A stretch of DNA of 58,034 nt, counting the filler, from Bipalium vagum (taxonomy: Eukaryota), in assembly GCA_037834085.1 (NCBI GenBank). It is 3 parts of 3 records of this genome, joined end to end, with 100 filler letters (N's around TTAATTAATTAA, not from the genome) between each part and the next. Parts side by side here need not be neighbours in the genome. Positions count along the whole stretch, not along the records: positions 20,386 to 37,406 come from JBBMKC010082244.1; 2 more parts are not named here. The stretch is one strand, 5' to 3'. Of this stretch, positions 11,587 to 41,285 are shown one piece after another. The notes beneath the pieces were generated by a model that was not told where the DNA came from, did no database searches, and was given only the letters and a program-made list of their open reading frames with translations. The position numbers were made by a program, and so were the translations under genes. Position 1 is the first letter of the stretch, and the number at the start of each line of letters is the position of its first letter.

Positions 11587-11799
11587 TATTATTAAACAAT
11601 AATTTTGATTTTATATTGACTTTATTGACTTTTTAACTTTTTGGAAAATTTTAACTTTAAGTTATTATTTTGACGGTAAATTTTATTTTACTTTATTGAC
11701 TTTTGTGGGTCATAGTCATAATATTGCATTATGAATTTGTAGCGGTAAAAGTTTTGAAAGTATGTGTTAATTACATTGGTTTTCTTTCAGATTTTAATG

Positions 11800-12300
11800 A
11801 AAAACTGCTAGGGAAAAATAAGTCATTTGTCATTTGAAAATCAAAAAAATAGCATTTGACATTTTGTAAATATTATTCCAACGACAATTAATGGATGACT
11901 GAAAGAAAATTTAACTTATGGTTAATGGAGTTTGACACGAAGTTGCAGAAAGAATTTAGAACAAAATTACTTTCGAAAATGTCTAACTGTCAAAATAATA
12001 AAATTACGAATTCATCGAAATTTAATGAAATTCTGTTATTCTCTAAGAATACGAGACTTACACCACTGGATTCTGGAATTACAAAATTTTTAAAATTAAA
12101 ATATTATCATAATTTTCTCTTATATAATGTCAATAAAATAACACATGCAAATCGTGATCAATCAATGTTTAAAGAAATTATTATAAAAGATTCTATTATT
12201 TATTCTATTCTATTATCTACCGTTGTAAAGATATTTATCGATCAACAATTGCAATGGGTTGGACGAAAACAGGACTTGTAAAACCCAGTCATACTATTTC
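11800..12300 (+). mobile_element. pogo/Tigger DDE transposase relic
   Basis: WMTERKFNLWL..FD and PLDSGITKFLKLKY match pogo WMT..F..WL and QPLDQGII..FK..Y motifs. Confidence 0.75.
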
Positions 12301-14479
12301 AATAATCGAAACTCAAAAAATTGATAATTATTACAAAGATTAGAAATTATCGAATAATTACATAAACAGAAATGATTAAACCACAGGACTCTTTTTATGA
12401 TCCAGATTTAAGTTTTTTGCATTAAGAAGTTACAATTATATATAGTAATGATATATCTAAAATAGAAACAAATGAAGATAATAATGAAATTATTACAAAA
12501 TTTAAGTTTGTAATCAGCATTGGTTTATTTTCATTATTTTATGTTATTTCTATGTATTTTTTGCCAAAGTCGAATTTTTTTCCAATTTTCCGGTTGAGGC
12601 AAAATTAAAGGGTAGACTAAATATAAATTTCAAAATGTGATACACTTAGCAAGTATTAAAACAAAATTTCGATATAAAAATAATGATTATTTGTTAATAA
12701 TATTTTCAGATTAATAGGTTGAAGTTTAATGCAATAAGTTGAAGAAACTTTTTGTTCAGATCAATGACTTACGAATATTAAAACGAAGTTTTTATGAAAT
12801 TAGATTTAATCAGAACTAACGAAAATTAATGACATATTTCTTTTTATTATGCCATTATCGATTTAGAAATTCTGAAAAATTATTATTACTAAACAGCTTT
12901 ATATTTTTCAATTTTCAAATAATAATTTGTTTTAAATAGTATGAAATTTTAATTAGAAATTTTTCATAATAAAAAGCCGATGATGATGTATTAATTGAAT
13001 TAAATTAAAAAATATTTTTCCGATGCTTAATAGTCAGATTCAGATTTGACTTAGAACAAAGTTTTCGTTGTAATTATACTCTTATCAAAACGATTGAAAA
13101 TTCTTGCATCTGTCAAAAACGTCCCAGAGATTTTTTGAGGAGACGATATTAATCAACGTGACAGGTAACAGACAAAAATGAATAACATAATTAATTGTCA
13201 TTTAAATTGTAATTAAATAAATTTGACTTCACGCGAAGAACGGATTCCCGTAGGGCGTTGACATATTCAGATTGATATTGATAATCTTAGGGCAACCCAA
13301 CCCTTAAAAGCTAAAGTTGAAGAATTATTTTCAAAGAATAATTGAGGAAGAAATCAATTTCTTTTCAATTAATTAGGGTACGCAAATTATTCATTTCTGA
13401 TCAGATTGACATCACAAACAATTATTGTTATTATTCTTTCTTAAATAATTGAACAAAATATCTCAAGATAATAAAAAACCAAATGAATTGAGTCTTAAAA
13501 TTTAATTGATGAGTCTCTCAAAGTTCAGACAATATTTATTAATTTCAAACATAATTTATGATATACTAAGAAGCAAAACTATTATGTTAACTAGTTTTCT
13601 CTAATCATATTTTGCAAACTCTGGAGAATTTAATATTAATTAATATTTATCTGTGTTTCTTTAGAAGAATAGAATTATTTTATTTTATTTATATAACATA
13701 TTAATTGAGAATTTTTAATTTAAACGTATGAAAAAATGGTCACGTGGTTAATTAATTATTTTTATTTTTATTTATATGACAAACATTTAAAATTGACGAT
13801 ATATACGTGTGAAAAAATACTTTCCCTTTTGATACTTTCTTCAAAATTATTATGTTAATATTTTTATGACATTGAATTCCTATATCGAAATTTTCAATAT
13901 TTTTGGTTTAAATTAAGAGGACGCATTAATTCTTGTCTAAAATTTAAATAAGCAATAACATTAGTTATATTTGTATTAAAGTCAAAATAAAAATTTATTT
14001 CAAATATCCAATTATCTAATGTAGGTTTAAATAAGGTTCAAAATGCTATTTGTTTAAATAAACTTTAAAAAGGTCAAAATTCCATTTTAGTATTTACTAA
14101 TGCTTTATTTGATTTCAGTAGAAGAAGTTCATTAAATGCGTGAGAAAAAAAATCAAATAGTTTAGATGGGTTACCAGACTTAAATCAGCTACTTCGATTT
14201 TAATGATAAAGACAATATCAGACAAAAAAGTCTGAAGATAATAAATTGTAATATTTATTAAATGAAAACCCCGTTAAACCAGAGAAACAATTGGGTATGA
14301 CACTAAATATTGTCAATCTTTGAATTTTATGCTCCGATTAAATAGAGAGACTTTTATTTCGTTTCTCATAAATCTTATGTAAAGGTCTAATTAGAATTAT
14401 CATAAGAAATTGTGGCTAATCCATTTATATCATATAACTACCCTCGAATTTATTTATTAGTTTTAGTTTTTAATTTATA

Positions 14480-14920
14480 CATTCAAATTATTGTTTAAAA
14501 AATTATGAAAATTGGTACCATGTGTTTGAAAAAAATATAATTCAGAACCATTTGAACACCTCAGTCTAAATTTTTTCCAGGCACCAAAAGAAGATTTTTC
14601 TGTGGATAAAAATAACTAGAGATGAGAAATGAATCTTATTTGACAATATAAAACGCAAAAGGTTATAGCTTAGGTCAGTTTAACCAATATCAGCGGCTAA
14701 ACATTAATGCTCTGCATTTAGTGGAGATCAAAAATATTTTATTTATTTTGAGCTTCAGTCACCAAATGAGGTCTTTATAGGAGATCGGTACAAACATCAA
14801 TTAATTAAATTGACTATAGATAATATGCATAACGACTTGATGTTTCTCATTTCACTCGGCTACATGTCGTAAAATGTGTAAAAGAAACGCTGCTGTGATT
14901 TAGTTTGGAAGTGCCATAGT
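14480..14920 (+). mobile_element. Decayed mariner relic
   Basis: ITRDEK*ILFDNIKRKR (~14612-14660) and MLCI*W (~14708). Confidence 0.7.
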
Positions 14921-14939
14921 ACGAAATATTTTAAATAAT

Positions 14940-15385
14940 TCCATGAAAATATGTCAATTTGTGCCAAACCTTTAAAATTGAAAATAAAAAGAGGTTTGTG
15001 GAGATTTACAAATTATAAATGCTAAAAACCTTTATATCAATTACAAAGAATTTAAATTTCTATGGTCACAGCAATAAATGTTCAAAATTGTGATGGTAGC
15101 ATACCTTTTGGTTTTAAAAGTCTCTAATTCCTCAATTAAAATTCATACCCGTTGCAGTCCCAGCAGAGTTTGCAATTACATGGAAAAATTTAGATACATA
15201 ATAATGCAAAACTTGGAACATGAAGATGATATATAGGCGGAGAAGACGTCATAGTTAGTAGGGATTGACTAAAAACGTTGTGTAAAAGTACAGCCGTGAA
15301 TATCATGTAAGTGGTATTAGGATCGTTCGTGGTGTAGAGGGCACAGAAAAGAAAATGATCTTCATGTTCGAAATATACGAAAATG
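14940..15385 (+). mobile_element. Merlin transposase relic (N-terminal to core)
   Basis: IGGEDVIVSRD..KYSREYHVSGIRIVRGVEGTEKKMIF resembles IGGPGIIVEIDES..KYHRGHRVEGVWVVGGVERT. Confidence 0.7.
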
Positions 15386-17074
15386 GTTTTGTCATTTAAG
15401 AAATATAATTACAAAATAAAAATTACAAAATTAGTTAATTTAAATAAAGAAAAGGTAACCATAAAAATATCAGACCCTGGTTTTTATACTAACCAAAAAT
15501 ACTTCACAGAACTTATCAATGAACGGTACCAAAATATAAGAATTACTCAAACAGACTGTTCATTAAAAATAAATAAAAAATGAGATTAGTTTTGAACAAA
15601 CCTATTATTATAAAATGCTTTGTCCTATGGATGGTATGTATATCAAAGCATGGTCATAGACATTGTCCATTTTAGCAAAAAGCGAAATTATGCTCTAATT
15701 ATCATCGCTTGTTAGCTTTATTAAACATTTTTCTTATTTGAAATTTCTTTATATAAACTTTTTGATGTTAATAATTACAGATTAATTTTGTGAAATATAC
15801 AAAGATTTGTAAGATAATTATTTACTTTTTCAAACTTTTTCCTAATTACGTATTGTATAATTAATAAGATATTTAAACAAATAATAATTAAGCTACATTT
15901 CCCCTTTTCATTGAAAAAAAGTAAATTTAAATATTTTTCATTATACTTATCTTGGTTTAAATTTCTCATGATTATTTAAGACTGGGCTGAAATATTGGAA
16001 ACCAATTGTACACCAACAATTGTATATTAATTTATTATTCAATAATTTTTTATAATAAAATATACTTGATAAAATTAATATTGAAACCTGATAAAACTGG
16101 CACAAATTACAATGTTCCGTGAAACTATTAATAAAAAATTAGCAGGTGTACTGAAAGTTTTAAATAAATAGAATCACTATTAATGGTTTATGTTTAATTG
16201 TTAGCTCTATATTATAAGACTATTGTCATTATTCTATTTTAATCAAGTTCAGAAAAAATCTGATTCCTAATGTTATAGTTATGTTCGCTAATAGATAAGT
16301 GAATTTCAGAGATCAGATAACAAGTTTATTTAATTTTATTTAATCGAAACACAGCCAACCTAATCCGTCATTTTTCGAATGTCTCAAAATATTCCACATA
16401 ATATTAAAATGTCTTAAAATGACAACTACTAGAATTAAAATAAATATCATAGGATTTTTCGTTATATTAAATAATTTTGTCAACCAATTAAATAATTTTT
16501 CCAATTAATTAAATAATGTTGTCAACCTATTACATAGACTTGTCAATCAATTAAATAATTAAAAAAAATTATTTAAAAACAACAATAACAATTTTCATTC
16601 ATTAATTACTTTTCTGGTGGAGCATTTAGTAAGATAGGGAAAAATTTTCTTATAAAAAGGCCCACAATAAACTTCAAAAATTTGATTAAACTTACTCGAA
16701 ATTAACCATTTAGCACCTGTTCGTTTTTTGCTCCTCCACGAATAACTAGATTCTTCCTAACCGATAATACATATTAGATAGGATTTTAAAATGGAGAAAT
16801 TTGAGGGAGATACAGTTTTTCAAGTGATGTAATTTCAATCCACGATAATGATGAATTCTAGCATTTTTCTTTTCAAGTGTACTGGTAATTGTCTTTACGA
16901 AATAACTTAGCTGCAATTTTCTTTTCTGTGATACGATTAGTCTTTTCGGCCTTCGATGTTCTTTTTCCTGAACTTGTTACGTTTGAATATTTTCACCAGG
17001 TAAGTTGAACATATTTCAGGTATAAAAATACATGCATTAAAGAAAACTTTTTTATAGTTTTCTGATCAATTACA

Positions 17075-18200
17075 TACGATGGTTTTCTTTTAGGTTTTGC
17101 ATAGAGATATAAAAATAACGCAAAAAAGACTTAATATTCAAAATATCAGTTTTCAAAATATTGTCCACAAAGATTTACACACTTTTCTGTGCGCTTAAAC
17201 CAATTGTGAAAGTAATTATTCAACTCATCAGCTGTAATACCAAAAATGACCATTTTGAATATGTCGATTACCTCTTTCGGTGACTTGAACTGTTGGCCAC
17301 GAAGTTTATTCTTCATGTTTGGAAATGTGGTAAAGTCGTCTGGACTTAGATGGGGACTATATGGTGGATGACCCAATAATTCTAAATTTTGAGATGATGA
17401 AAAATCTGTTGTTACTAGAGCTGTATGTGAACTAGCATTGTTGTGATGAAGAATGATTTTCCGTTTTATGTTTGCTCTTCGTTTTTTTTGTTCTACTGCA
17501 ATTATTTCTGGCAAACAGATTGTTGTAAAGCATTACGAGAACAGGTAAGTCGTGTCGAATTCTCCTCAGATTTGAACTCCCAAACACATGATTGACTTTT
17601 ATTTTCAGGCTCATACAAATAAATCCATGATATGTCAACACATTTTTTGACCTTCCGTTTTTGGACCTATTTAATGTTTTTCTGCACCAGTTGACTCGAG
17701 CTACTTTTTGTTCATCAGTCAGAAAATGTGGGATCAACGGGAAACTAACTTTCTCACATTCAGGTCTTCATGCAGGATCTTGTGCAACGAGGTCTTTGAA
17801 ATACTCAGCGAGCACTCCATCTCACGATATGCTGCAAGTCGATCTTCCACAATGTGCTAAAGTAAGCATCACTTTTTTTCCTGGGTAACTGCTGTTCGTC
17901 TTGTACCAATTCTCCGCTTGTCGGTCAGACTACAGCATCCACGTTGGTAATCGCAGTACCAACTAGAAATGACAGACTGATGTGGTGCTTTATCCACAAG
18001 AACAGATATCATTTCGAATCGATATTGTTCCTGAGATAATTTCTCTTCTAAAATTATACAGGATTGTTGCTCGTACATTTTTTCATTGATTATGTTTTTT
18101 TAAATAGTCGCTATAAAAAAGACTTTGATAAGCAAAATATATAATTCTTAGTATATAAATAGATGTTTGTTCCACATAATGATATTTTGAGAACAAAAAA
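17075..18200 (-). mobile_element. Near full-length decayed mariner
   Basis: Three ORFs in order: HTH (17869-18078), IPHFLTDEQKVARVNWC (17432-17737), ILHHNNASSH..GHPPYSPHLSPDDF..KCVNLCGQYFE (17146-17514). TIRs not resolved. Confidence 0.92.
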
Positions 18201-20385: not shown

Positions 20386-22397
20386 ATAATATTTAAAATT
20401 CATTTTTCAAAATTTATTTAATTAATTTTAAATTAATAATTAAAATGCATGATTTTAAATTGACCAGCGTATTAACTAAACCTTATTTTTCGCCAAAAGT
20501 TTATTTATAAAGATTAAAAGATTGGAGTCGAACCTCAACACAAGGTTGTACATTTTCGGACTACGAATTTTTATCATGTTTTTCTTGGTATAATAATTGT
20601 ATGATTTACTTTATATCTGATTCAAAATCAATCAAAAATATGACGGAACTGCTTTAGTATGTTTAGAAGACAATACTTTTTTAAAATTTTGAAAAAAATA
20701 TACGAGTGCCTTTTTAAAAATAAAATTTAATTCGAAAGATATAAATAATTATGCATTTTCACAATTATTTATAAGCAAATTAATTTTAAAAAATGAAATA
20801 CTTATAAAATAATTTTTCCAAATATTTTAAAATGAGTTAAATTGTGACACGAGTCCAGCAGTTTTTGGAAACAATATTAAAGATCTTCTGATGACGTTAA
20901 TACTTTAAATTTTATTACAAAAATCCTTTGGAACTAATAATTACGCCTCTCTAAATTTCACTCATTCTACGTCAATAGTGTTTGGTTCTAGAATTAATAA
21001 TGATTATATTATTAATTAATAATAAAATTTTCCAAAAACGATATATTAAAATCTGGTTGAGTAATGGAGTTGTCAGATGCAAATCATTTAATTAATTATT
21101 AAAACAAAAATCTATTTGAATAAACCATGATAAATATCCTACCAGAGCGACCAATTGGTCCACGAATCATAAGATAGTAATACTTTATTTTATATATTTT
21201 TATTGAAGAAATTTAATAATTATTATTAATTCAGAGATCTGGCAGTGAGCAATTCACACAAAATAAATTGAAAAAATTTTCATAAAATACTTTATTTGTT
21301 CTAAAAATATTAGAAATAACTGTTACTTTATGAATACAGTTTCATAAAACAAATTTAGACACCAAGGATATTTGATTTCTTTTTCCATTTTTGTCAATCC
21401 ATTACTTTCCTTTGATTAAGGAAGGCCCACATATAATTTCGATAATAAAGCTGATTATTTGTTTTATATCATAAATAACAGCACAGGTACGTAAATATAC
21501 TTAAAAATTTAAAGATTTTTGGTCAACCAAAAACGTCAATACTGTGTATTTTAAAACGAACGATTAAATTTTCATTTTATGATAAATCAGAGTTCATAAA
21601 AAATAAACACAAAAAATTCAAAATCAACCATTTTTTATATCAAATGTACCAAATATAATAACATTTCCAGTGTCGTCAGTTATCAAGCGACATTTCATTT
21701 GTTAAAATTTAACTATTGAAAGTCTTCTAAGTACATTTTTACTATTAACTTTCATGAATGTATTACGTTAAGTTCCAAATGCCATAAAAACTCATGTAAG
21801 ATCATATATAGAAAAAATACAATATAATTTATTTTATTAATAGTCTAATTCATTTATAAAAATTTCGTCAATATCCAGAAATATGGTATATAAAAGTAAA
21901 TTTTTAAGACTTATAGTGACTTCTATAATTTGAAATTAATATTAAAATAAATTGTGAAATAGTTATGACGACCTTTTTGAAAAATTTACATATTGTGTTT
22001 ATTATATTATTTAAACAAATGATTATTTTTAAAAATTAATTTCATTTTTAAACTAATGTTCTCTATTTTTAGCAATTTAATTATATTTAAAATCTAAAAA
22101 AATTTAAATGTGCTTGCAATGTAAACTTTACATGTTTAAATTTCTTATTGATTAAGTAAACAGTTTTTGAAATTTAAAAATTAATTTTGTTCTTATTTTC
22201 TAAACAAAGAGCTTAATGGGTAAGAATTTATATATTTAATATATTTTTACATATTCATAAGACAAAATATTAAAAAATCTTTTTGTATGAATTTAAAATT
22301 AAGTCTTTCCACAATTTCAAAGAACACTAGAAAATGTAAATTAAAAACAAAAATAGTGTAATAATAATAACTGGGATAAATTATTTTTAATAAAATA

Positions 22398-23040
22398 CAG
22401 TGCAACTTCTATTTTGGACCAATTTCTGAAATGGTCCACTTCTATAATCGGACGAAACTCTATAATTGGACCAATAATTTGTATTTATCATATTTCTCGA
22501 TATTTTCATATAAAAAATAAAATTCGTGGTCCAAAATTTTTAATAATCTGTTTAAAAATTTATTAATTTTATAATAATAATAATGCATATAGCATTTTCA
22601 AAATCAGGAATGAGTAAAAAATTATCATATGAAGATAAATATAATATTGCCAAGCAACTTCGCAATAAAGAATCTTCCCAGCGAATGCTATGCAAGAAAT
22701 ATACTATCAAGTCAACAATTCAAAGAATTTATACTGAATTCGAAATAAATCCTTTAAAAAAATTCAGGAACAGGCTTTGACAGTACTATTTTAGAAATGT
22801 TTCAAAGGTTACGTCAGAGAAACTTCCAGATAAATGGTCCGACATTAAAAAGCATTGTTTTAAATGTAGCAAAAAAATAGAATTGATTTCAAAGCACCGA
22901 CAGATTGGTTGGATAAATTTAAGAGACGGCATAAAATCAGTTAGAAAGTTTTATCAGAAGAAATGAAATCAGCTGATCACTCTGAAACTGAAAACTTCCG
23001 AAATATCATGAAAGAAAAAATTAGTCAATATACAGCTCAA
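22398..23040 (+). mobile_element. pogo/Tigger 5' fragment
   Basis: TA|CAGTG terminus at 22396-22402; HTH-psq-like ORF 22583-22780 (LSYEDKYNI..) and CENP-B-type WLDKFKRRHKI (~22906-22940). Confidence 0.85.
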
Positions 23041-23044
23041 TATA

Positions 23045-23785
23045 CCACTGTTCACCGTCAATGCAATAATATGTTTGTATCTCTTCTTTTATTATTATCG
23101 GTTCATCTAAGCATAATAAATTAGCACATTCTAGTAAATTACATTCCTCTGAATCGGATGAAAAAATTTCAGTATTGTCTTGGTTATCAACTCCTGCATG
23201 TTTGAAACAATTAATTATAATTTAATTCTGTATATTAATCCACGCTGAAGAAATCCATGCTACCGCATGTTTAACAGTTATTGTTTGGAAATGTTTCAAT
23301 ACGTTTTCATCTATCTCACTTACTGTCAGCAGGTAATTCAATAAAATTTGACGATACCGAAGCTTGAATATTCTAATTATTTTCTCATTTCTGTTAATTT
23401 TATTTGTTAATTCGTCCCCTACATTTTTCAAACTTGATGCAGTGCCTATTGAGATTCTATATTTCTTAGCAACAGCTCGTACGGACAAACCGTTCTACAA
23501 ATCATGGTGACATTTTATTTTCTCTAAAATACTTAAGTGCATAGTAAATATAATTTTAATTTAAATTTGTCATTTTTTATTATTTAAATAAAATTTCAAA
23601 TTTTATTTTGAATGTAACAGGTAATTTTAATTCAAAAATTTTTTAAAAAGTGTTCAAATTTTAAAGTATACAGGTTTTCAATTAACACAGGTGACAATAA
23701 CTTATATTTACAGTGTACGGAATTAAATGTTCAAATAAAAGAGGTATTCAGCTAACAAAGCTGTTCATGTATGCAGGTTTCACTG
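23045..23785 (-). mobile_element. Internally deleted pogo/Tigger
   Basis: CACTG|TA terminus at 23781-23787; ORF 23222-23488 fuses HTH (SVRAVAKKYRISIGTAS) to the C-terminal ITVKHAVAWISSAW..IINCFKHAG. Confidence 0.8.
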
Positions 23786-24302
23786 TAAATCTTAAATTTA
23801 ATCAAAATCTGACTCCACACAATTTAAAAACGATTAAAAAATAAAATTGAACAAAATAAAAATACATTTTATTTCGATTAAAATATATTGTTTTATTTTA
23901 ACAATTTAGAAACTAGATAACACTTTATTGAAGACAATAATGGATACTTTGAAGGGAAGTGAAAAGTCCTTTTGATAAGAAATAAATAATAAATAAACAA
24001 CTATATTAGACAAAACGCAAGAAAAAATATTAACTACTTGAATTGATTAGCCCTTATCAATTTGAAACATTTTTCTTACGCAACTATCGCAGTTACAATG
24101 ACCTTGAAATTACCGAGAAATATGTATGACATTATTTCTGATTTTTGACTCGAAATCTAGAGTAATTTTATTATAGAATGACTAACTACTATAAGACAAT
24201 TATTATTCCATTGACCCCATTGACTTAACGTTTGATCGGGCTCATAATGATTTGCGTCAATGGGCAAAATGATTACGACTAACTTAATTAAATTTATTAA
24301 TA

Positions 24303-24873
24303 CAGTACCCTCTAAAATTTTTTATTTTTTTGTAAAGTGTACTAATAGTTTATTATTTGATGTTATTCTTGTTTAAGTAACTTAAATTTAAAATTATTTA
24401 TTTTTAATAAACATTTTAACATTGGATGTTACGGAAACCAAATAAAAAAGACCAGATATATACACCAAACTTGGACCTAAGTTAAATAAATGAAGATGCT
24501 TTTCTTTGAATGATGTGAAGCTATTAAAAAAGATATAAAGTTAAATGGATGCCAAATTATATCAGAGAAGCACACTAAATGATATTATTGTCGTTGCTAA
24601 ATGTTTAGTACACCCTAAGTATAATTTCATATTCCACCATGGTTTGGAAACTTCACATAAAGCAGTTCAACGACACTCGTATTCATTGAATAGAAAATAT
24701 TGTCAAAATCTCGTGGAATTAATGGGGATTCGAGTCAAATCTGTTCTCAATATAAAAATGCATCACACTGGGTATTAGAATGTAATTATGATGAAAATTT
24801 GAAAAATATTTTTTGATTTATATTATTTTTTATTTATTGGATATAGGGGTAAATAAACTTTTAGAGGGTACTG
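24303..24873 (+). mobile_element. Non-autonomous Tc1 derivative (571 bp)
   Basis: Perfect 15-bp TIR cagtaccctctaaaa with TA flanks (24301-02, 24874-75); Tc1 C-terminus CQNLVELMGIRVKSVL..HTGY*. Confidence 0.9.
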
Positions 24874-24889
24874 TAATTAAAATCCAATA

Positions 24890-25400
24890 TTTGGTAACAT
24901 ATTAATATTGTTGATGAAAATCCTTTGCCACATTACATGCATGAAACCAAGCGTCAAAGTTTTCAGTGTGTTGCACCTGGTGAACGACAGATGGTTCATG
25001 CTAAGTCAGCCACATCAGTTGGAATATATCAAGTTACTGTACTCTAGAACAGGAAAAAACTTATCAAGTTGACCATCAAAGTACATCATCAGTGCTTGTC
25101 TATCACAGCGATTTGCTTCAAATTGTGCAACCAAAAACATGTATTTGGTCAAATCAGTGAACGGAAGTGTCAGTTGCTTCTACATCGACCGTATCCACCA
25201 GACCTAGGACTTAGGGATTACAACCTATTTGGTTTCATGAAAGATGTCCTCCACACTGTTAATTTCACGAGAGAACGTTAGATAAATGCATCCGTGAAGA
25301 ACTCACTAAAGTGGTTCTAAAAGAAGTAAAGGGATAAAGAAACTGGAGAGACTTTGGAGACTTGCATGTTGATTATGTAAAACTGTGACATATGTGGTTA
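24890..25400 (+). mobile_element. Decayed mariner relic
   Basis: HETKRQSFQ (~24940) and LLHRPYPPDLGLRDYNLFG (ORF 25069-25281). Confidence 0.72.
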
Positions 25401-25929
25401 TCCTTTGCTTGTTGTTGCTTAATAAATACAGGACTGTGTATTCTCAAAACCAACTTCAATTCGAAAAATGCAAATGAAAAGATTTTGCGCTGGCTAACCT
25501 AGGTGCAGAGTCCATCTGAAAACATCTGTAAACTTTGTCCTACTTATCGGAGTACATGAATAGTTACTGGAAGAGAAGTTTTAGCTTGAAATATTTTTAT
25601 AGAACAAATCAAGTAAAACTGGTTTTTTTCCTATTAAACATAAAAGACTTTCTTGAAATTTATCTTTTGTTTTATGGGTCCTCAAATCGACCAGTTTTTA
25701 GTTAAATATATTTTTTAATTCGTTAAATTGTATGAGTTCATGATTAAAAAGCTTGAAAAATCCAATCATTTTTTTCTTTTTTAAAAATATTTAATTTAAT
25801 TTTCCGTATTTAATCATGTGACAAAGTTTCCGAATTAAAAGCTAAATTTTCTATTATTTATAATTTCAATTAATAATTAATTAAAAAATCAATATCAATT
25901 TTAAAGATTAAATATTAATATTAAATAAA

Positions 25930-28638
25930 ATGGTTAGCGGATTTTTCTGAATGTTCTATTAAAATGGATAGTTTTAAAAATGATAAAATGATCTAGGATT
26001 GATCTGTTTTATAATTATTGTAGCAAGAAGTGATATGTATAAACATAGGCCAGGCTGGAATACAAATGGCCAACGCTAGCTGGGAACTATTTTGTGTGGA
26101 ACATGGTATCCAGGCCAATGGAAGATTAAAATATGAGCATCACGTATTTACCAATTTTACAACGTTCTTTCAGGAAGTTCCGTCAGGCAATTTTGTTCCA
26201 CGAGCAATAAACATTGATTTAGAACCAACAGTATTGGGTAAAAATATTTATTAAATGGAATTAATTAAGAATATAATAATGTATTAATGATAATAAAATA
26301 TAAATAGTCGAAAAATCTTAAGAAGATATTTAAATAAGTTGTTAATTAAAATACATGACAATTTATATCATAATATTATATTATTTTTGACCTGGAACTT
26401 CTGAAACTATTTCATTATATTGAGTAGACAATCAGATGAAATAAAGCTTTCCTGTTTGAAATAACAATATATGAATTTGGTAATCACTCCTGATTGATTC
26501 AGTGGTCTTGATAAAGTTGAATCCTTATATTTATCTGGCCTACTTAACTGCTTGATATCTATTACTTCTATTAGATTCTAAATATTTTTTTAATATCTCT
26601 GCTAGGATGAACCCGAGACAATTAAATTTCTATATTAAATTTTATTGATACAGTTTTCTAAGTAAATCAATGGTAAATCCTGTACACTCACTCTATATCT
26701 CATACACCTTAAGCTTCTACCAAAAAACCTTTTTTTATTATCTTAGCAACATTTTTATGTATCAAACTTATGAGAACCGCTTTTGTTAAAACCTTTATTA
26801 ATTGGCTTATTTAAACAACTTTCAAATTTTACAACTGTTAATGCTTAATTTAATGTAAAATAATGATGATTGAAATATTTTGTAAAAAGAATCGATGATT
26901 TTTTTATCATTCAAATAAAAGTTAAAAATATTTAAGTAATATTATTATGGGTACAAATAAATAACGTGGATTTTTTAATAACCAAAGCATATGATATTAT
27001 ACAGTATAAAAAATTAAACAGATAAATGAAATTATGAATTTTATAGTAAATAATTGTTAGAACTACTACTACTACTACTAATAATAATCATAATAATAAT
27101 AATGAAAATAATAATAATAATAATAAAATAATAATAGTAATAGTAATAAAAATAATAATAATGAAACTAATAATAATAAAAGTAATATAATAATAATTAA
27201 ATAAAAATAACTAATAAAATATAAGTAAAATATATAACAATAAATAAAATAATTACTAATAAATAATAAATTCTTTAAATGAAGCACATTGAATTATTTC
27301 ATTCATACACATACTTCAGTGGAGGGGTTAGATAACTTATTTCATCACGTTTCAGATGAAATCAGGGCAGCATCCTATCGTCAGTTGTGGCATCCAGATT
27401 ACTTAATAAATTGTTGTGAAGATGCAGCTAACAATTTCGCTCGAGGTCACTACACAATTGGGAAGAGTATTATCGAAAAGTTTATGGATCGATTACGGCG
27501 ATGTTCAGGTGCTTGCGAATCGATTCAAGGGTTCATAATTCTCAACAGTTACGGTGGTGGCACTGGGTCCGGACTATCTGCTTTGATACTTGAGCATATA
27601 AATAACGAATTTTCAAAAATCAGCAAAATTCAGCAAGCCGTTTATCCAGCTCCTCAGTTGGCCACTGCCATCGTTGAACCATATAATGCTCTGTTAACGT
27701 CTTCCAAAACCATGGAACTTACCGATGTCGTTACTTTGGTTGACAATGAAGCAATATATGACATCTGCTATCATAAGTTAAGTATCCCTCGACCCGGATA
27801 TAATAATATCAACCGACTGATTTCACAGATTTTCAGTGCCATGACCGTGTCTATAAGATTTGGATCTTCTTTACATAACGATTTGGTTCAATTACAAACA
27901 AATCTAATTCCGTACCCCAGGATACATTTTTCAATTGCCAATTACGCTCCTGTTATTGATTCTCATAGAGCAGTTCACGAAGGTCTTACAACATCGGAAA
28001 TAACGCGGGAATTGTACGACCAGGCTAACCAATTGATAAAGTGTGATATGCGCCTAGGAAAATATATGTCGTGTTGCGTTCAGTACCGGGGTTTGGTAAC
28101 ACCTCGTCAAGTGAATTTAGCAGTTTACGAAATCAAAAAGAGAACCGATATAAATTTTGTCGATTGGTGTCCCACCGGATTTAAGTTAGGTATTTGTCCG
28201 ATGCCCCCGGCTCTGGTTCCCGGTTCAGAAATGGCAGAAACCGATAAGAATTGCACCATGTTTTGCAACAATACGGCAATTGTTCAGCTATGGCAACGCC
28301 TGAACAAAAAATTTGATTTGCTCTTTCACAAAAGAGCATTCATTCATTGGTATGTTGGGGAAGGAATGGAAGAAGGCGAATTTGTCGATGCCAAAAACGA
28401 TTTGGCTGATTTGGAAAACGATTATGAAAGTGTTGCAGTTGCTACCGATGAATCTAATGTGCGACAATCAAGAACCAAGTCCCAAGGAAATCGAGATTCA
28501 CAAGGCGCTAATGTTAGATCGTTCGAACAAGTTCAAAGTGCAGGGTCGCAAGAAAGGAAAGTCAAGAAACATGACAGTATTACAGTAACTGATAATAATG
28601 CTAACTATAGTATGTTTTATAAAAGAAATTACAGATAA
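25930..28638 (+). CDS. TUBA: Divergent alpha-tubulin, 3 exons (25930-25932, 26024-26237, 27356-28638), 499 aa
   Basis: GQAG, VPRA..DLEPTVLDEIR, EDAANNFARG, GGGTGSG, VEPYN, QTNLIPYPRIHF, FVDWCPTGFK and KRAFIHWYVGEGMEEGEF are alpha-type motifs. GT-AG introns fall after the ATG and inside the D76-equivalent codon, both conserved metazoan alpha-tubulin positions. The 1500-nt CDS has no internal stop. Confidence 0.95.
26024..26237 (+). CDS. TUBA: alpha-tubulin exon 2
   Basis: ttgtag|CAA GAA GTG..TTG G|gtaaaa; QEVICINIGQAG..DLEPTVL. Confidence 0.93.
27062..27270. repeat. (ACT)n/(AAT)n degenerate microsatellite in tubulin intron 2
   Basis: Visible trinucleotide periodicity; it produces the spurious L/Y-rich ORF 27078-27287. 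Confidence 0.85.
27356..28638 (+). CDS. TUBA: alpha-tubulin exon 3
   Basis: tttcag|AT GAA ATC completes D-E-I-R in phase 1; open to TAA at 28636-38. Confidence 0.95.
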
Positions 28639-28713
28639 CGCTCAAAAATATACACATCCGAGATATATATTCAGATATATATATATTTTGGACGGTGTTT
28701 TAGCGCTGTACAA

Positions 28714-28719
28714 AATAAA
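28714..28719 (+). promoter_or_regulatory. Candidate polyadenylation signal of the tubulin gene
   Basis: AATAAA 75 nt after the stop; weak evidence in AT-rich DNA. Confidence 0.45.
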
Positions 28720-28925
28720 ATTTCATCATAATTAATAATTAAGGTTCCTTTTTCATAATTGTATCATTTTATCGTTTTTCTTACAGGAGCACAATTAACA
28801 TGATAATGATTAAATAGAATCGTTTACTAATCTTAAGTTAGTCTTGAAGATGTAATTTTTAATTAAATATTTTAATAATCCTATTTTTGTGGGAAACATT
28901 TCCCCTTGGCTAACTGTTAATTATA

Positions 28926-30167
28926 CAAGTGTTTAATAAGGCACTTCAAAATAAAAACAAATTTATTACGAATAAAAAATAGACAGGCTATAGTTAAATT
29001 AATGTAAATGTTATAATCAAGTCAGGAATATTTTCAATGTTTATAATAAATGTTCGATATGTCCACCATTTTCTGCCTCTACAGCCTCAAATCGAAGAAC
29101 CAATTTTTCAAAGGCTGCTGCAGTTATCTCGCAAAAACTGCTTGCCAGTGTTTGTTTTATAAGGGAAATTAATTCTTCTTTAGTTTTAGGCAGAGTTTCA
29201 TGATAAACTGTTGATTATTATATAGCCCCATAGCAAGTAATATATAGATATGGGAAACAAATAGCCTAGAATTGTGGAGAGTGTCTGCTAATAACAAGGT
29301 TTTTTCTAAATTGTAACAGGAGTTAATTAGCATTAGGGAAGATATGTGGGGCTCCCCATTATGTATGAAAATAGCGGAACAAAGTTTCTTATTCTTCCTC
29401 AAAGCAGGTAAAATATGCTCTAATCATTAAAGGATGGCGCTGGCCATTGACAGTTTCATAGTACATAAAGGGAATGAAAGTAAAATGTTTGAAGATGACT
29501 ATCCATATCGTCACTTTCTGTGAATGCTGAGGAATGGTGTGGTGTGTCTTATGTATTCACATAAAAATGGCATTCATCTCTCCAAAATAAATTACTCAAC
29601 ATTTCCTGATTGTTGAAAAGTAATTTTGTAAAATGCAGTTGGAGGTGAGAATCAGTTGATTTTAGTTCTGGTAGAATCGTGAATTTATAGAGAAACAGCC
29701 TCAGTTTATTACCAAAATGTGGCGCACACTAATGTGAAGAATTTTTTTTCCATCCTAGATTCTTCTAGAAGAGGTGCAGTCAATTTCTAATTCAGTTTTT
29801 TAAAGCAATCTGCAAGACTGCACATCGTTCATTTTTCTTAGATGGGCATCCTAATTTTCTCCTATCAATAACATTGCAGGTTTCTTCAAATTTTTGTAAT
29901 AGATTTTTTATGGAATTTGTAGAAAGGGGATAATTTATTAACTCTTTCTTAAACCTTCATGGAGTCGCAGTTGTATTTTCACTACTTGAATAAAAATATT
30001 TAATAATAAAATTTATGTCCTTCAAAGAAATCATGTTTTATCTAAAAAAACAATGAAATTGAAATATTAGCTACAAATATTAAATATTGATTTATTAATC
30101 ATAATGAAATGATAAATATTAATTAATTAAGATAACAAGCCACTTTTAATTTTTATGAAACACCCTG
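28926..30167 (-). mobile_element. Decayed Tc3/rosa-like (Tc1-mariner superfamily) element
   Basis: CAGGGTGTTTCA-type end at 30156-30167 with a degenerate partner at 28926; IWRDECHF, ETVNGQR, IFIHNGEPH (QDGAPPH-like) and ENGGHIEHLL* motifs. Confidence 0.78.
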
Positions 30168-30719
30168 CTTTAATAACACTAAGAAAAGTTTCATTTACAT
30201 TTGTTTAAGCGGAATAATTAATTAAATATATGTGATATCGTTATATATGACACTTTAAAAATTTCTAAAAAAAAATAATTAGTTAAAATTAATATTTTTA
30301 TGAAATATGTGAGCTACGACCAATAAAACGTATTTTATTTTAACAATATACCCATTAAAAGTCAAAAGTAATGCATTAAAAACATTTTAAACAAAATTTA
30401 ATTTTGATGTCTCATTGAAAATAAAGATCTAACATAATTTGAGCTAAATATAATTTCGAAATTATGTGAAATAATGAATATTTGTTCATCTGAAGATGCC
30501 ACAAAAATAGTTTTAATTAAACTATTAAATGTTAATGTGGTAAAATTCTAAAAAAATAATCCAAATAAGAAAATCGTACAAATGTTACTAAATAAAATGT
30601 AGAAAAGAAATAGTGGATCTAGAACTTGCGTATTTTATGTTTGTTTAAATATATCAAGATAATTAATTAAAATTCAAGAACCTTTAAATAATTATTTTAA
30701 TAAGATTTTTCAATTTTTT

Positions 30720-31260
30720 TTAGTTTTGGCTTCAAAAAGTCTCTACAATTTCAATAACAGCAATGATCAGATATAGTTCTTAAAGCGATTACTCGTATTA
30801 AAAATATTCAGAGACAATTAGGGACTCAATTGATTTTGATAACTGTGTCATTGAAGACGAAGTAAATATGGTGGAAATTGATGATTGCAAATTGGGAAAG
30901 AATAAAAATCAACGAGACCTAAGGTTAACGGTGCTGGGTCAGTGGTAGTGTTGAATTGACTGAAAAGAAAAATGTATCTTTTTATTAAGGTACCTGGCCA
31001 TTAAGCAGATATCTTAACCAAAATAATCAATGATTAAGTAAGGTCATGATCAATCATCTATAAAGATATATGTAAAGGATACTACCGTTTAAATGAAAAC
31101 AGATACCAACATGATACCGTTAATCATTTCAAGACATTTAAAGACCTAATAACTGGGGTTCATACCAATACAATTAAAGGATCTTGGAATTGTATCAAAA
31201 TGCAAATATAACCCAAAAATGGAACAGAAAAAAATGCGAAAATTAAAATTGGAAACTAAT
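30720..31260 (+). mobile_element. Merlin (ISXO2/IS1016-like) transposase relic
   Basis: VEIDDCKLGKNK, SIIYKDICKGY and HDTVNHFKTFKDLITGVHTNTIKGSW match VEIDESKFGKRK, SIIYTDCWKGY and HxTVNHS..FxDPxTGVHTNTIEGxW. Confidence 0.88.
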
Positions 31261-32195
31261 GAGTATTAGATCATATTCAGCAGTCTTATCTTTCATCCAT
31301 TTATTATTTATAATATATATATATAATAAAATATCTAAACCAAAGTTCGTTTATCCCTTTTATTACAATTTCACTCCGAAGAAAGTCAATGAAGAACACA
31401 CCAAAAAAGGATCTTTAAACTTTTCCTTAATTTTGTTATAAGCATCAATGTGATAATTTCTTTATTTTTTTTAAATAAAAAGATGGTATATGTAACCGGA
31501 GATCTTCATAATAATAATAAGAGCACCAATTACAGTACCATCGCCTATTTGGTATCACTAGATCTTGGTGATACTACTAAAATAGTTTCATTCATACTGC
31601 TTGGCAATATCCGTTTTATTATTGAATCACGGGTATTTTTTCGTATTGTATTTGACAGCTTAACATGAGTTTACTTTATGTCTGGAAAGAGTAATGCTTT
31701 CCAATATTGGCCTTGTAAAAATTATATTTTATAATAATTTAATCTTGCATCCCAGCCTCAATCCGAAGTCTTGTCTCTGACTTCAGTAACCATTGCTATC
31801 TACAATATTGGATATTGATAGAACTAGGGTTTCTGAGCGGAAAATTATCTCCTTTAAGCTTTGTGAGAGAATTGAATGAAGCTCGATGGGCATCTTCTTA
31901 TGTAAGCCTTAATATAGGAAATTTTAAACTTGCTTATTATTTAATATTGTATGCTAAAAGAAGTTGTAAAAGCAACAAATGTCGTACTATTAATTTTATT
32001 TATTTATTTTCTTGTTATATTATTTTTTATAATTTCAAACAATTTGTGCATACTCTGCATATCCTTTATGCATCTCCATACGATAAATCGTCAGGTTCAT
32101 AAGACCAAAGAATAATTAAATGCTATTAAAAGGACAATTGAATCACAAGCTAAACCATATTCAAGTCATACTTTAAGACGAACAAAATTTTGTCT

Positions 32196-32470
32196 TCAAT
32201 CATTAACGAAAACATTATCCGATGATTTGTTGAAATGTTTCTGAATGAATCTTGAGACTGCATTATTTGATACCTTAATCTTCAGACTAGATCTGTACGG
32301 TGTTGTCTGAAATGGTTTTGGAACAAGTCCCGGCCTTTCTCTTTCACTTTTTCTCGATAGCGATCTCAATTCCGTCACCAGCAAGACCAACAACTCATCC
32401 ACTCCATGGTTGAGACTCGTAGCAATTTCTTTGAATCTCAAGTTGTAAATGCAAGACAGTCTCTTTCCCT
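32196..32470 (-). CDS. Terminal exon of an RGK-like (Rad/Gem/Rem) small GTPase
   Basis: tttctag acceptor, then EGKRLSCIYNLRFKEIATSLNHGVDELLVLLVTELR (cf. RGK EG...FIETSAALNHNVDELLVGI..QIR) and a C-terminal AVSRFIQKHFNKSSDNV; upstream exons not found in this contig. Confidence 0.7.
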
Positions 32471-34199
32471 CTAGAAATATCAAATTTACGTATTATACCT
32501 TTACTTACCTTTACTTTTCGTTATTCACTATCTCTGAACAAAATTTACATGAATAAAAAAATGATAAATAATGTAGTGGACGAAAATTTGTTTTCCCTTT
32601 CAATTATTTATAATAATAATAATAATTATTCTTCTTATCACATAAAAATTTAAATTTAAAGAATTACAATAGAGAAATTGAGTAAAATATTGAATTTTTT
32701 ACAGATAATTGACGCAAATTCGATAAAAACCTGAAATCTTCAGTCACATTTAACTTCATTTGAAGGAAAAATAAAAGATATCTAGATTAAATTATTTTAT
32801 AATTTATATTATTTTTAGTAAACAAATAAAATACATTGTTCTCTATGACACACAAACCATATTTCCTCAGTAGACATTTATTCATAATTTCTGTCAATTA
32901 CATGACGAGCACCAGTCAAACAAGCCAAAATAAATCTCTTCCAGTGTATTTAAGGACTAATCATTATTTTTTTAATATTTTAATTACTGTTATGTTTGCA
33001 ATCGGATATTTTGAGTGATTCAAACACAGTAAATAATCGATTTTTCATGATATTCCATTTCGCCAATTTTTCTTATTTATAATTTATAATAATATAAATT
33101 ATATAATAATATATAATTTTATTTATTTATTTGTATTATTCATATTCTATTTTTCTCCATACGATTTTATTTATTTATTCATGATTATTTAAAATTCATG
33201 GTTATATTTTAATAATTTATATTTTAATTGTAATTTTTTTTAGTTAATTTGTTAGTTTAAATAAGTTTCACCTTTGAATAATAAATTAAACCGAATTCTT
33301 AGTTTTAGGTCCAAAACTTTATTATATTTCAATAAAAACACAAAGACTAGGTCTTATTTCTTTTTTTTACTGTGATATTGTTTGCTTTTATGACTTAGGG
33401 TATAGAGTAATTTCGAAACATCTAATAGGTGATGGATTGAAGGAGTTATATAAAGCTCTTCTTAGACGCAGTTAAGACGGTGCATTTCTTTCATAAGGTT
33501 TTTTATGCACAGCTGAAGATTGGCGAAGAGAACCAGGTAAATTGCTTTATTTTCCTTTTAATCCTTTCCAATCTACTGCCGATGACTGGTGAAGAAGAGC
33601 TGATGAGGCTGACAAAACCTTCGGAAAGAAGAAACCAAAAGAAGATGCCAAAGATGATTTTAAACGAATTGAACACATCAAAAAAATCTGACGAAAATGG
33701 TCACAAAGTGTTTTACAAAATAAATATTGCTTTTATTTTCAGAGACGTCAAAGCCACATACTTAAGAATCGAGAAGAATGATTCTTGTCATTTATTATAA
33801 TGCAATAGGGAGTGAGAAACACCCTGAAATAAAGACAGGATTTTCAAAATATCCGAAAGCGTTTAATTCCTTTAACACATCTGCATATGTTGATTATATA
33901 AATAATAAAAAACATGGGTGATTTATATGGTTTTTAATCTTTAGGAAAACTAGATTCGGATAGGAAAGTAATTTTATTTATGGTTAATGCATCAAGGTAT
34001 GTTAAGAAAAATATCTTTCTTAATGCAAAATAGTTTTCATCCAGAAAATATCGATGTAGTCTGCAGACATTGGATAAAATTGACTAACAATAGCATTGAC
34101 ATTTATTTTAATTTCGATGAGAATGCATTTAAAAATAATAGTTTTACCACGGATGACGAAGAAATCTTAGAGTTATTAAAATATGATGTTAATAGTGAT

Positions 34200-35258
34200 C
34201 TAAATATGTCAACATTGACATCAAGCAAAGAACAAATGCCGGAAGTTCTCATTCATTACTCCATGATGAACAAAACTGCGACAGAGCTGCAGGATATTAT
34301 GCGATGTTTATGGAAAACATGTATTATCTCAGGACATATGCGAGCGTTGGTTTCACCACTTCAGAATTAATGATTTCAGTGTGAAGGATAAAGAACGCCC
34401 AGGCCTTTTTTCTTAATTTGAAAACCACGATTTACAAAGTTTATTGGATGAAGATGCTTGTCAATCACAAAATCAACTTGAGTAAGATATTAAAGGAAGA
34501 AAAATGGGTGACTCGTCAATTGAATGAAAGACAACTAGAAAACCGAAAAGTAGTCAGTGACATACTCTTACAATGGCATGAAAGAAAGTCTCTGACTATT
34601 AACAGGAGATGAAAAGTGGATCTATTTTAAAAATCTCAAACTTACAAAACCATGGGTTAACCGAGGTCAACCATCAAAAGAAACTACAAGACCAGTCCAC
34701 TTCGGAAAGAAAACAATGCTTGGCGTCTGGTGGGATCAGCATGGCATGGTGTAACATGAGCTTCTCAAACCAGGTGAAAGTGTTAATCCGAAGAGATACC
34801 AAAACGAAATAGCCCAGCTGAATCAGTCTCTAATTTTTAAACGTCCGGAATAGGTGAATAAACATGGAGAAGTAATTCTTCTACATGACAAAGCAACGCT
34901 TCACAGTTCTTAAGCAGTTAAAAGCATGTTAAAAGATATAAAAAAGGGAGTAATCACTCATCCGACGTATTCACTAGATCTTGTTCCTTCCTATGTTCAC
35001 CTGATCTCGTACAATGGCACATGGACTTGCTGAGCAGCACTTCAAATCGTATGAACATTTCCAAAATTGGGTCTTTGGGTGGTTCTCTCGAAAGCAGAAA
35101 AGTTCTTTTGGAATAGCATCTATAAATTGATTGAAAGATGGAAAAAATGTGTGGATAACAATGGCCATTATTTTGAATAAATTATTTTTTATTTTCGTTT
35201 TGAAATTACCTTGATTCGGTTATTAAAATAATCCACATTATTTATTGGTACCCATAAT
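34200..35258 (+). mobile_element. Near full-length decayed mariner
   Basis: WFHHFRINDFSVKDKERPG, WVTRQL, LTGDEKWIYFKN, MLGVWWDQHG, THPTYSLDLVPS and C-terminal ..KCVDNNGHYFE*. Confidence 0.92.
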
Positions 35259-35744
35259 ACATCTTTTCTGAATACAATTTAAGTGTTTTGCTTTAGTTAC
35301 CCAGTTTTAGAATTTTCGCCAAATTCCGTTTCGCCAATGTTTTAATTTTTCTTAAATAACCTCACAGTCGTAACCTCACGTAGTTGGAGTCTCAAATTTA
35401 GTTGTATTCATTGGAATCCATTTTATAACTCTATAGTAATAAATATCCTCTTGAAAGGACTTTTACAATTAAAGATACAACTAGAAATTTTCACAAATGA
35501 AGTTTTAGTGACATCCATTGATAGTTGTGAATTAGAATGGACCTTCTAGAAGTTAGGATGTTCAAAAATTAAAATCTATTAAGGTTACAAAGCAAAAGTT
35601 GATACATTGCAAAATTCAGCCTGAACATTTTACCGTTATAGTATACAAACGTACAAAAAATAATAAAATCTATAAATCTTATTTATTTCGTTTAAACGGC
35701 TTTGTTAACAGGGGCAATTGAAGAATTTGGGAGCTCATCTGCTA

Positions 35745-36130
35745 GGTGCAATTATTCCAAGATGCCACTCCAGTCCAGAAGTTATTGCTTGAATGGGTAT
35801 TTCTATATCACGTATTTATAGTCGGTTATTTTAATGGCCCAAACAATTCAGAAATGCCGAAGCCTTACGTCATGACACAACTGCGTCGGCAAACAAGAAC
35901 AAAATTAATTTTTCAACTGGATGAAGATCTTGATCGATGCTCGCATGAAGTTAGAAATATTTTGAACAGCATATTTCCCGGATGGTGATTTGGGTGACCA
36001 GAACAAATACATTTGGCTGGGAAATCATCAGATCTTTCCAAAATGAAATTCTTTTTTGGGGATGTCTACAGACAAAGATTAATGCAAAAAAACTAAATAA
36101 GCTAAAAGACCTGATTAAATATATCATCAG
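35745..36130 (+). mobile_element. Tc3/rosa-like transposase fragment
   Basis: IFQLDE..EVRNILNSIFPGW*FG..SSDLSKMKFFF resembles FQQDGAP..VREFLNETFPGRWIG..SPDLTPLDFF. Confidence 0.72.
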
Positions 36131-36790
36131 TTCTTTATAATTTAAATATTCCAGCCTTTTAATTATTATTTTTTCTGAAAAAAATTGTTACATTATTTTC
36201 TCTCGTGTAAAATTTGATTGAGAAATTATTATTACAATGTAGTTTTTAATAATTTAGTTTTATTAGTTAAATAAATTCATTTAAACAAGGTATATAACTG
36301 AGAAGTATTAAAAGAAATTTATGTAGAATCAGGATTTCAATGATAATATTTATAACATCATTTCTTTTGGTTTTTGGACAGAAAAAGTTTATTATAATTA
36401 TTATTACGCAACAATATTCTCATTAAAATCATGGCCATAAAAACGATTTTTGTTGAGAAAATCAGAAATATTTTCCTCTTTTAAAATTTAATCAAAAAAG
36501 AAATGAAAAACATTCAGAATTGAAACATCAAAAATTGAATCGAAGCCGAATCTCTTATCGGAAACAGCTCGAAAGAACAAAAAGAAGAATGTAATACATT
36601 CATCTCCTATCACTTCAATGGCCAGGTGATTGTGGCTGTACAATAATCAAGATGGCCATCCTAATTAACAGCGACAGTTTTCCATAAAAGGCGCTTCAAA
36701 GATTGAAAAATATGAAAAATGAAATGGAGATTTTAATTCAATTCGACATCAAGTTTATCCATGAGAATGATGTGAAAATTGAACATTATT

Positions 36791-36825
<35 letters not shown>

Positions 36826-37406
36826 CTATATTTTCTGTTATTATGAAGAATACACGTGGGAATTTTTAATTTTAATATCATTAATTAAATCTGAATTATA
36901 ATAAAATAAAATTTTATTGTAATTAATTTTTTATTATTATATTTTTTTATTATTTTATTAAATTGAAACAGTAATTAAGTTACATTAATTTAAAATTTGA
37001 ACAGTTAAAAAATCAAAAGTATTAGGGTGAACCAAAAGTTCGGGTGTTTTTTACACATTATATATTATTCGATCATTCGGAAAAAATGACTTGCACTTCA
37101 ATAGTCAAAACATTCAAGGATTTCTATAAATAATATTTAGATCTGATTGATTTTCAATGTTATCATAATTAATATAATATAATTCTATATGTTGCATCTT
37201 TTTAATATAAATTGATATTTAAAACTGATATATTTTATTGATTTCAGTAAGTAATTCATCATTTTATAGATTGTTAAATTATCTTTAATATGAGCTGTCG
37301 AATATATACTCATGGAAAAAAGTAAAAATCACCCTAAAATTCTAAATAATTGTTAATAAATTAAAAAATTTCTAAACTATTTTTTATTGTTTAAATTTTT
37401 CAAATC

Positions 37407-40150: not shown

Positions 40151-40169
40151 TAAGATGAATATATAACCC

Positions 40170-41285
40170 AGTCGATCATACAAGCTCATCGGATGCTGAA
40201 CACCTCAGAGAAGCAAATATTTAATCTAGCCTTGAATTCCTTAAAGTTTCAGTCAAACGTGACGACAGCAGAAATGTACATTGGCTGGTTAAACAAAGCA
40301 CACAATGAGGCCCTACAAAGGTCCTGGTGGTCCAAAATTAGCATGGCTATACATTATTTTGATAAGTACCACAATATCAATATAGCCTTTCAACTGAACA
40401 ACTTCAGCGAAGTCATTACAATCATCAAAGTTAGAAATAAAATCACAATCTTTGACAAATTCGCAACTCACCTTCTATGTCCGTTCTTACATGAGGAAAT
40501 TGGGGAAAAGATGTTTGAGAATTGGGCTAACTTGTGCAGCGTAGGAATACTGGCAAAAACAATTGTCTTAAATGGTCACCTAAACAAAAAACTGATGAAC
40601 GGGCACCTGTGCAGTACAGAAAAATCGTACTTTATTCAGAAGTATCGGGCTAATGATCTACCAACCAATAAAAAATTGAAAAAGGCCGGCAACTGTAGAA
40701 ATTGTTATGGGAAAGAAGAAACTACCTCACACGCCTTATGCAGCTGCATCTACATAATGCCTATGGTACAAAAAAGGCACAATGGTGTACGCGCTATCTT
40801 AGTTGATTTGTTGTCCACACTTAAAAAGGAATGGGAAATGCACTTTGAAAAGAAAGGAATTTTTTCTGGAAAAAACTTAATTCCTGATACACAATTAGTG
40901 AATAAGAGACTTAAAAGATACCTAATTATAGACGTCAAAGTCCCCTTTGAATCAGAGATTTCTATCAAGGGCAATGACAAAGCAAACAAGCAAAAATATC
41001 AGACTTTGTTGGACGAAGCTCAATCCGAGCTCGGAAGAACATTGTACTATGATATCAGAACAATTATAATCGGAACCGGGAGTTAGTGGATCCCATCAAA
41101 CTACCAAACACTCGAAGCATTTGAATTTAAAATAACAGAAATTAATTCAATTTTGGAAAAATTGACAGCCATGGCTATCATTAATTCCCATAATATCTGG
41201 AAAAAATTTATATCCAGAGCAGAAATAAACATTTAAAAACTTCCCCGTATCAATGACAACCATATCTTTGATTTGAAATAAATCA
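40170..41285 (+). mobile_element. 5'-truncated RLE-type non-LTR retrotransposon (NeSL/R2/R4-like)
   Basis: ORF 40193-41086 has a CCHC knuckle CRNCYGKEETTSHALCSC, RHNGV, PD..IIDVKVPFE (PD-(D/E)xK), KQKY and IIIGTGS*W; the frame continues past one TAG to TAA at 41234-36; AATAAA at ~41278; no RT domain. Confidence 0.9.

Follow-up and report, generated by a model that had tools for sequence, protein, structure and literature searches.

To our knowledge, the catalytic glutamate E254 and the acidic C-terminal tail are regarded as near-universal in alpha-tubulin, and hydrolysis-deficient tubulins are known only as engineered mutants. Alpha-tubulins without a tail, chytrid beta-tubulins with a long one and expansions of the alpha-tubulin family have been published before, and a sister sequence of the gene described here stands in public databases as a plain alpha-tubulin. 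With human tubulin in vitro, alphaE254Q microtubules are reported to retain GTP and to lack catastrophes, and in E254Q/E254N mosaics the E254Q fraction blocks lattice compaction (PMC11893814, available text). In cells, hydrolysis-deficient tubulin is reported to increase the accessibility of the alpha-tail (PMC12885479, available text).

We analyzed a window of 58,034 nucleotides from the genome of the flatworm Bipalium vagum (the whole stretch, made of three joined parts), in which a tubulin gene lies within part 2 (20386–37406). With splice sites predicted from consensus, the gene encodes a protein of 499 amino acids with no internal stops (Table 1), which is matched by both PF00091 and PF03953 in Pfam and whose best 60 PDB sequence matches are alpha chains. 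The long exons of its paralogues likewise start at codon 76, the site of intron 2. One contig of run X1 covers 27219–29026 with no differences and no gaps relative to the window, an agreement that is not independent confirmation because that run consists of contigs only and may be the source data of the assembly. The candidate poly(A) signal lies in AT-rich DNA in which AATAAA-type hexamers are frequent (6 within 460 nt). An AlphaFold2 model built from 103 sequences had a mean pLDDT of 86, with most of the body above 90, and Foldseek superimposed the body on alpha-tubulin chains at 1.2–1.5 Å rmsd over ~360 residues (TM 0.82–0.84). The product is 69% identical to its match in Dugesia ryukyuensis, versus ~56% for other animals, and both its sequence and its predicted fold indicate that the gene is a divergent alpha-tubulin paralogue.

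Table 1. Predicted features of the alpha-tubulin gene, in positions of the window.
Feature	Position	Strand	Details
Predicted exon 1, coding part (ATG only)	25930..25932	+	ATG/GTTAGC...TTGTAG; consensus-predicted; joins exon 2 in frame
Intron 1	after ATG at 25930..25932	+	91 nt; GT..AG; consensus-predicted
Exon 2	26024..26237	+	alpha-tubulin residues ~2–76; Pfam Tubulin match; residue map
Intron 2	26238..27355	+	1118 nt; GTAAAA..TTTCAG; phase 1; at codon 76
Exon 3	27356..28638	+	tubulin body from residue 76, then tail and stop
Q254 codon CAA, replacing catalytic E254	27889..27891	+	
67-aa C-terminal tail	28435..28635	+	net +5; 13 Ser/Thr
Terminal motif NYSMFYKRNYR	28603..28635	+	identical in P0020; similar in P0014 and P0015
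Candidate poly(A) signal AATAAA	28714..28719	+	75 nt past the stop

A preliminary description of this locus had reported that the E-hook is replaced by a long basic tail, and in-frame translation of 28435–28638 confirmed a 67-codon tail after DYESV, followed by TAA, with 12 K/R against 7 D/E. The net charge amounts to 0.075 per residue, with 28% of residues charged, and in place of a short tail ending EEY the protein ends YR. The E254Q change reported with it was likewise confirmed. The SQG and NVR 'repeats' did not survive scrutiny, being two repeated trimers that 13% of 20,000 shuffles matched (P = 0.13) and that were absent from the three relatives whose tails were compared. In the flanking non-coding DNA a stop-free run of 51 codons starts at 640 of 15,228 positions (4%), and the tail stands out from chance mainly because the orthologue P0020 has the same last 11 residues. 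The GC content of the tail is 37% (45, 42 and 25% at codon positions 1, 2 and 3), compared with 25.5% over the 200 bases that follow it and 20% within intron 2.

Splicing to a conventional acidic last exon had been named as one outcome that would undo the basic tail. None of the 577 GT-to-YAG joins that we surveyed within 5 kb gave a net charge of −5 or below, the lowest being −4, and downstream on the contig we found one weak acidic candidate alone, of 6 amino acids. The canonical paralogues in the genome encode their acidic tail within the same exon. A consensus-like donor (ATA/GTATGT) does lie at 28610, inside the terminal motif, and splicing from it would remove the motif but leave, for five of the six acceptors closest to it, a tail of 62–68 amino acids with a net charge of +3 to +4. 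In two paralogues, L013 and L016, the frames run into G/GTTTGT donors, which suggests an intron within the tail of each and hence that tail splicing occurs in the family. These two likely tail introns, the fragmented state of the assembly (272,664 contigs) and the report that separate E-hook exons are common among tubulin genes (PMC4202323, available text) are what could be said for an artefact, be it mis-assembly, a stop codon lost only recently, a pseudogene or splicing that takes the tail out. Against it stand the unbroken 499-codon frame with consensus splice sites, the tail end common to P0020, the lack of any acidic product in the splice survey and the single-exon acidic tails of the canonical paralogues, and we regard an artefact as very improbable. 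Relatives, composition and the splice survey all indicate, at the level of sequence, that the tail is coding.

P0020 groups with the gene (SH-aLRT 94–95; both of our trees are quick searches without bootstrap) and carries a tail of 78 amino acids with a net charge of +4. It is identical to the gene product at 251 of 309 positions in the body (81%) and at 11 of 52 in the mid-tail (21%), and then at 11 of the last 11. In two sister proteins, P0014 (the D. ryukyuensis alpha-tubulin BAF75867.1, UniRef A7M6D9, 534 aa) and P0015, the tails run to 100 and 106 amino acids with net charges of +4 and +6, and their ends resemble the motif (Y..YK[RK]{2}.Y[FY]). P0014 reads unbroken across the position of the exon 2/3 junction, and we infer that it is an mRNA-derived record; it presumably stems from a sexual-organ cDNA screen, and no paper describing it was found in the literature that we searched. 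The preliminary description had called for a comparison of tail length and charge, and in the orthologue and the two sister proteins the tails are likewise long (78–106 aa) and net basic. The recent stop loss that it had weighed fails at this level, since long tails with an identical or similar end recur in all three, which makes the tail old. The five-member clade to which these proteins belong is fully supported (SH-aLRT 100), and its tails are all net basic (+4 to +7), at 0.04–0.075 per residue with 7–17 acidic residues interspersed.

What is conserved in these tails is the 11-residue aromatic–basic end, and not the charged middle; the terminal motif is known from four proteins only. Further orthologue searches, with the tail alone and among shorter proteins, added none: the tail-alone search returned four candidates, none at E ≤ 10, and none of the 120 shorter proteins listed belonged to the clade or matched the end motif. 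Within its own genome the tail matches itself alone. In L002, the paralogue nearest to the gene, a basic tail of 51 amino acids lacks the motif, which implies that at least one copy can do without it. We also considered whether the DNA past the stop of L002 is a decayed distal tail like that of P0014, but the resemblance was not significant (best P = 0.05 in nine comparisons).

The pattern extends beyond this clade. Among 15 pairs of a paralogue and an outside match, which involve 12 paralogues and so are non-independent, the last 20 residues beat shuffles (P ≤ 0.001) in 7, and the remaining 8 had no clear terminal match. The sign of the tail charge agreed in all 15 pairs, or in 14 once the tree re-pairs P0276 with L023 (a mismatch); omitted from this set are two short-tailed pairs and seven distant ones (≤53% identity), in which the sign agreed in four. 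Judged from these alignments, the tails appear to be conserved orthologue by orthologue. This bears on the idea that the tail is a tolerated spacer with a purely negative effect, in which the code-bearing acidic tail is gone and motors, glutamylases and severing enzymes ignore the subunits. In the orthologue P0020 the mid-tail has diverged and yet the end is identical at 11 of 11 residues, and terminal motifs recur in further orthologue pairs; neither is what a spacer predicts, and we think such a role quite improbable.

The preliminary description had instead proposed that the basic tail could act as a built-in MAP, binding the acidic tails of neighbours electrostatically, bundling microtubules and shielding them from severing enzymes. 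Basic, Ser-rich disordered segments of many MAPs bind microtubules, and the tail resembles them to a degree: its last 42 residues have a pLDDT below 50, which also follows from the shallow alignment there, and it carries its net +5 (the first ~20 residues are modeled as a weak helix after H12, pLDDT 60–65). The net-basic character of all five clade tails, the charge sign kept between orthologues and the net charge of the whole protein, −5 versus −24 in the canonical chain, likewise favor such a role. The charge is weak and diluted by acidic residues, however, so that the tail would be better called a weak polyampholyte than a polycation (+5 over 67 residues; +4, +4 and +6 in relatives), and phosphorylation of its Ser/Thr residues could cancel the charge altogether. 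Conservation falls on a sequence-specific end rather than on the charged middle. The tail matches no Pfam family at E ≤ 0.1, and neither a tau-type tubulin-binding repeat of the MAP2/tau kind nor PGGG occurs in the sequence; to judge by this, the protein is not a tau-type MAP. The net-basic character of the tail stands, and the electrostatic role assigned to it we consider unlikely, the more so as charge is uncoupled from the E254Q change that it had been said to fit: 10 of the 15 Q254 paralogues have acidic tails, and 7 of the 15 long basic tails retain E254.

These last counts come from the gene family. The genome contains 99 tubulin matches, of which we analyzed the open frames of the best 48 (L001–L048), all of them alpha, and read the C-termini only of 18 more. 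Tails of at least 30 amino acids after the YxxV anchor, and up to 580, were present in 34 of the 48 frames, these being genomic frame lengths of which at least two may enter introns and one (L042) stops at a contig edge; 15 of the 34 are net basic, and a short acidic tail was present in 10 of the 48. E254 is absent from 29 of the 48 (Q in 15, V in 7, D in 2, I in 2, T in 1, A in 1 and an alignment gap in 1). The gene is thus one member of a large family, not a single oddity. All 24 rows with Q254, 5 of whose 15 members in this genome have basic tails, fall into a single group, whose support (SH-aLRT 91) stays under the tool's mark of 95 and which includes the trematode protein KAA0189647 of Fasciolopsis buski, with a tail of 63 amino acids and a net charge of −5, although its long branch leaves this placement unsure. 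Long-tailed relatives that retain E254 were found in Paragonimus and Calicophoron.

At position 254 a second clade of 11 frames (L025, L027–L030, L033, L035, L036 and L040–L042; SH-aLRT 99) carries V, I, A or a gap; it mostly has Cys at position 416 (EECE), and its tails reach up to 580 amino acids, that of L033 containing long internal repeats. L034, L037 and L043 form a clade that keeps E254, with net-basic tails of 223–533 amino acids and trematode relatives of 800–1100 amino acids, and the 177-amino-acid tail of L012 consists of many KMS[FVA]DK repeats. One further locus, L065 (G000:C233380:3000-6000), is a divergent beta-tubulin with a short acidic patch followed by a long Ser/Lys-rich tail ending NY, and is a candidate partner of the long-tailed alpha chains.

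Compared site by site with a canonical chain, using residue lists drawn from general knowledge, the predicted protein keeps 23 of 25 N-site GTP residues, 25 of 33 residues of the intradimer face and 13 of 18 on the outer H11–H12 surface (the motor-binding helices). The interdimer face is kept at 19 of 34 positions, the M-loop at 5 of 11 and H1-S2/H2-S3 at 6 of 15, and in the K40 loop, encoded in exon 2, 2 of 16 residues are kept, with H at position 40 and a three-residue deletion. Three features of a canonical isotype are accordingly missing from the chain, namely the catalytic E254, the short acidic EEY/F tail and the K40 acetylation loop. With its polymerisation faces so much changed, incorporation into the lattice is not assured, and the better-kept intradimer face would suit a protein that binds beta-tubulin outside the lattice, as a cap, template, seam or scaffold subunit or as a buffer of free beta-tubulin; its minus face would then no longer touch another dimer, and E254 would have been lost for that reason. 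The V, I, A, T or deletion found at position 254 in 12 other paralogues is what relaxed constraint would be expected to produce. Q254 is nonetheless fixed in all 24 rows of its clade, the trematode protein included, which looks like selection rather than drift, and the outer motor-binding helices are kept, so that we rate a role outside the lattice as rather unlikely.

The reading that we prefer, tentatively and at a little short of even confidence, is that the gene encodes a dimerising, lattice-stabilising isotype, probably of sperm type, with a disordered tail that exposes a conserved docking motif at its end. The alpha chain would pair with beta-tubulin and join long-lived microtubules in mixture with normal tubulin, probably the microtubules of spermatids and sperm. 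Q254 would leave the GTP of the neighbouring beta-tubulin unhydrolysed and so suppress catastrophe; the preliminary description had taken E254Q as a stabilising change, and the human tubulin work backs it in this (PMC11893814, available text). Having neither the EEY tail nor K40, this subunit would escape detyrosination, CAP-Gly docking and K40 acetylation. The tail may then serve as a flexible tether, with its last ~11 aromatic and basic residues docking on a specific partner (a cross-linker, a membrane anchor or the lattice itself) and its weak positive charge acting as a secondary aid. Every paralogue of the family would in this way mark the lattice with a tag encoded in its own gene.

Published expression data bear on the sperm assignment indirectly. 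In D. ryukyuensis, alpha-tubulin transcripts (2081 and 1831 nt) are reported among the top genes of sexual worms and as testis-expressed (PMC6467871, available text), and alpha-tubulin is again listed among the top sexual or testis genes of this species (PMC12654950, available text); in Fasciola several alpha-tubulins are reported as testis-enriched (10.1101/2023.12.11.571084, available text), and flatworm sperm are described as having cortical microtubules and 9+'1' axonemes. None of these published testis alpha-tubulin transcripts was matched by sequence to the clade of the gene: two supplementary files of PMC6467871 gave no match, and in twelve of PMC5544531 the accession was absent and the tubulin rows were not assignable to the clade.

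A broader interpretation, possible but doubtful, is that flatworms have a hard-wired tubulin code, in which dozens of hydrolysis-incompetent alpha-tubulin paralogues in stable arrays, each with its own long tail and conserved end motif that replace MAPs and tail modifications, would make up the cortical microtubules and the 9+'1' architecture of the sperm of the phylum. As we conceive it, and with the same reserve, this would embrace the Q254 clade from planarians to trematodes together with the V/I/A254 clades. A natural, conserved Q254 clade with long gene-encoded tails would, if true, mean that an animal can set how stable its microtubules are, and which partners they recruit, through isotypes alone. 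More important than this one tail is the family to which it led, relatives of which are present in parasitic flukes.

Elsewhere in the window, at 52161–56428 on the minus strand, lie several exons whose product has a Pfam WD40 match and resembles the axonemal dynein intermediate chain WDR63/DNAI3, a putative identity. A 448-amino-acid ORF at 44656–45999 (−) without a Pfam match starts MGNNKS, a possible myristoylation site judging by its letters. A 310-amino-acid frame at 40154–41083 (+), also without a Pfam match, has a CCHC-like knuckle and a PD..D-K motif, and we take it to resemble the endonuclease end of an R2-type retroelement; fragments at 7925–17767 and 22600–25300 we take to resemble mariner/pogo and other DNA transposases.

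We found neither naturally occurring E254Q alpha-tubulins nor this flatworm family described in our literature search, which missed most subscription journals and several supplements. Among the closest known systems is P0014 of D. ryukyuensis, which stands on the fully supported sister branch, has Q254 and ends its long net-basic tail in Y-K-R-R-N-Y-F; it is the orthologue of L002 rather than of the gene, and its mid-tail is unalignable. The canonical alpha-tubulins (TUBA1-type), to which the 10 frames with a short acidic tail belong, share with the gene product the fold, GGGTGSG, the N-site GTP residues, R402 and E414/E415/E417, and 241 of 435 residues are identical; the gene product differs from them in E254Q, in lacking K40 and EEY, and in its altered lateral and interdimer faces. 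Alpha-tubulins without an E-hook and chytrid beta-tubulins with extensions of up to 1,100 amino acids have likewise lost or replaced the acidic tail, with sequence of low complexity (PMC4202323, available text). Those extensions are described there as not conserved across species, unlike the flatworm tails with their conserved ends and lost E254, and the main text of that paper mentions Platyhelminthes, Schistosoma and flatworm zero times. Bdelloid rotifers too have many divergent alpha-tubulins, 11–13 per species, an expansion with fewer copies for which the available text mentions neither position 254 nor long tails (PMC3464624). Engineered human alphaE254Q carries the same catalytic-site substitution as the flatworm protein, but as a laboratory point mutant on a canonical background, whereas the flatworm change is natural and common to a clade; the paper on the human mutant nowhere uses the word 'naturally' (PMC11893814, available text).
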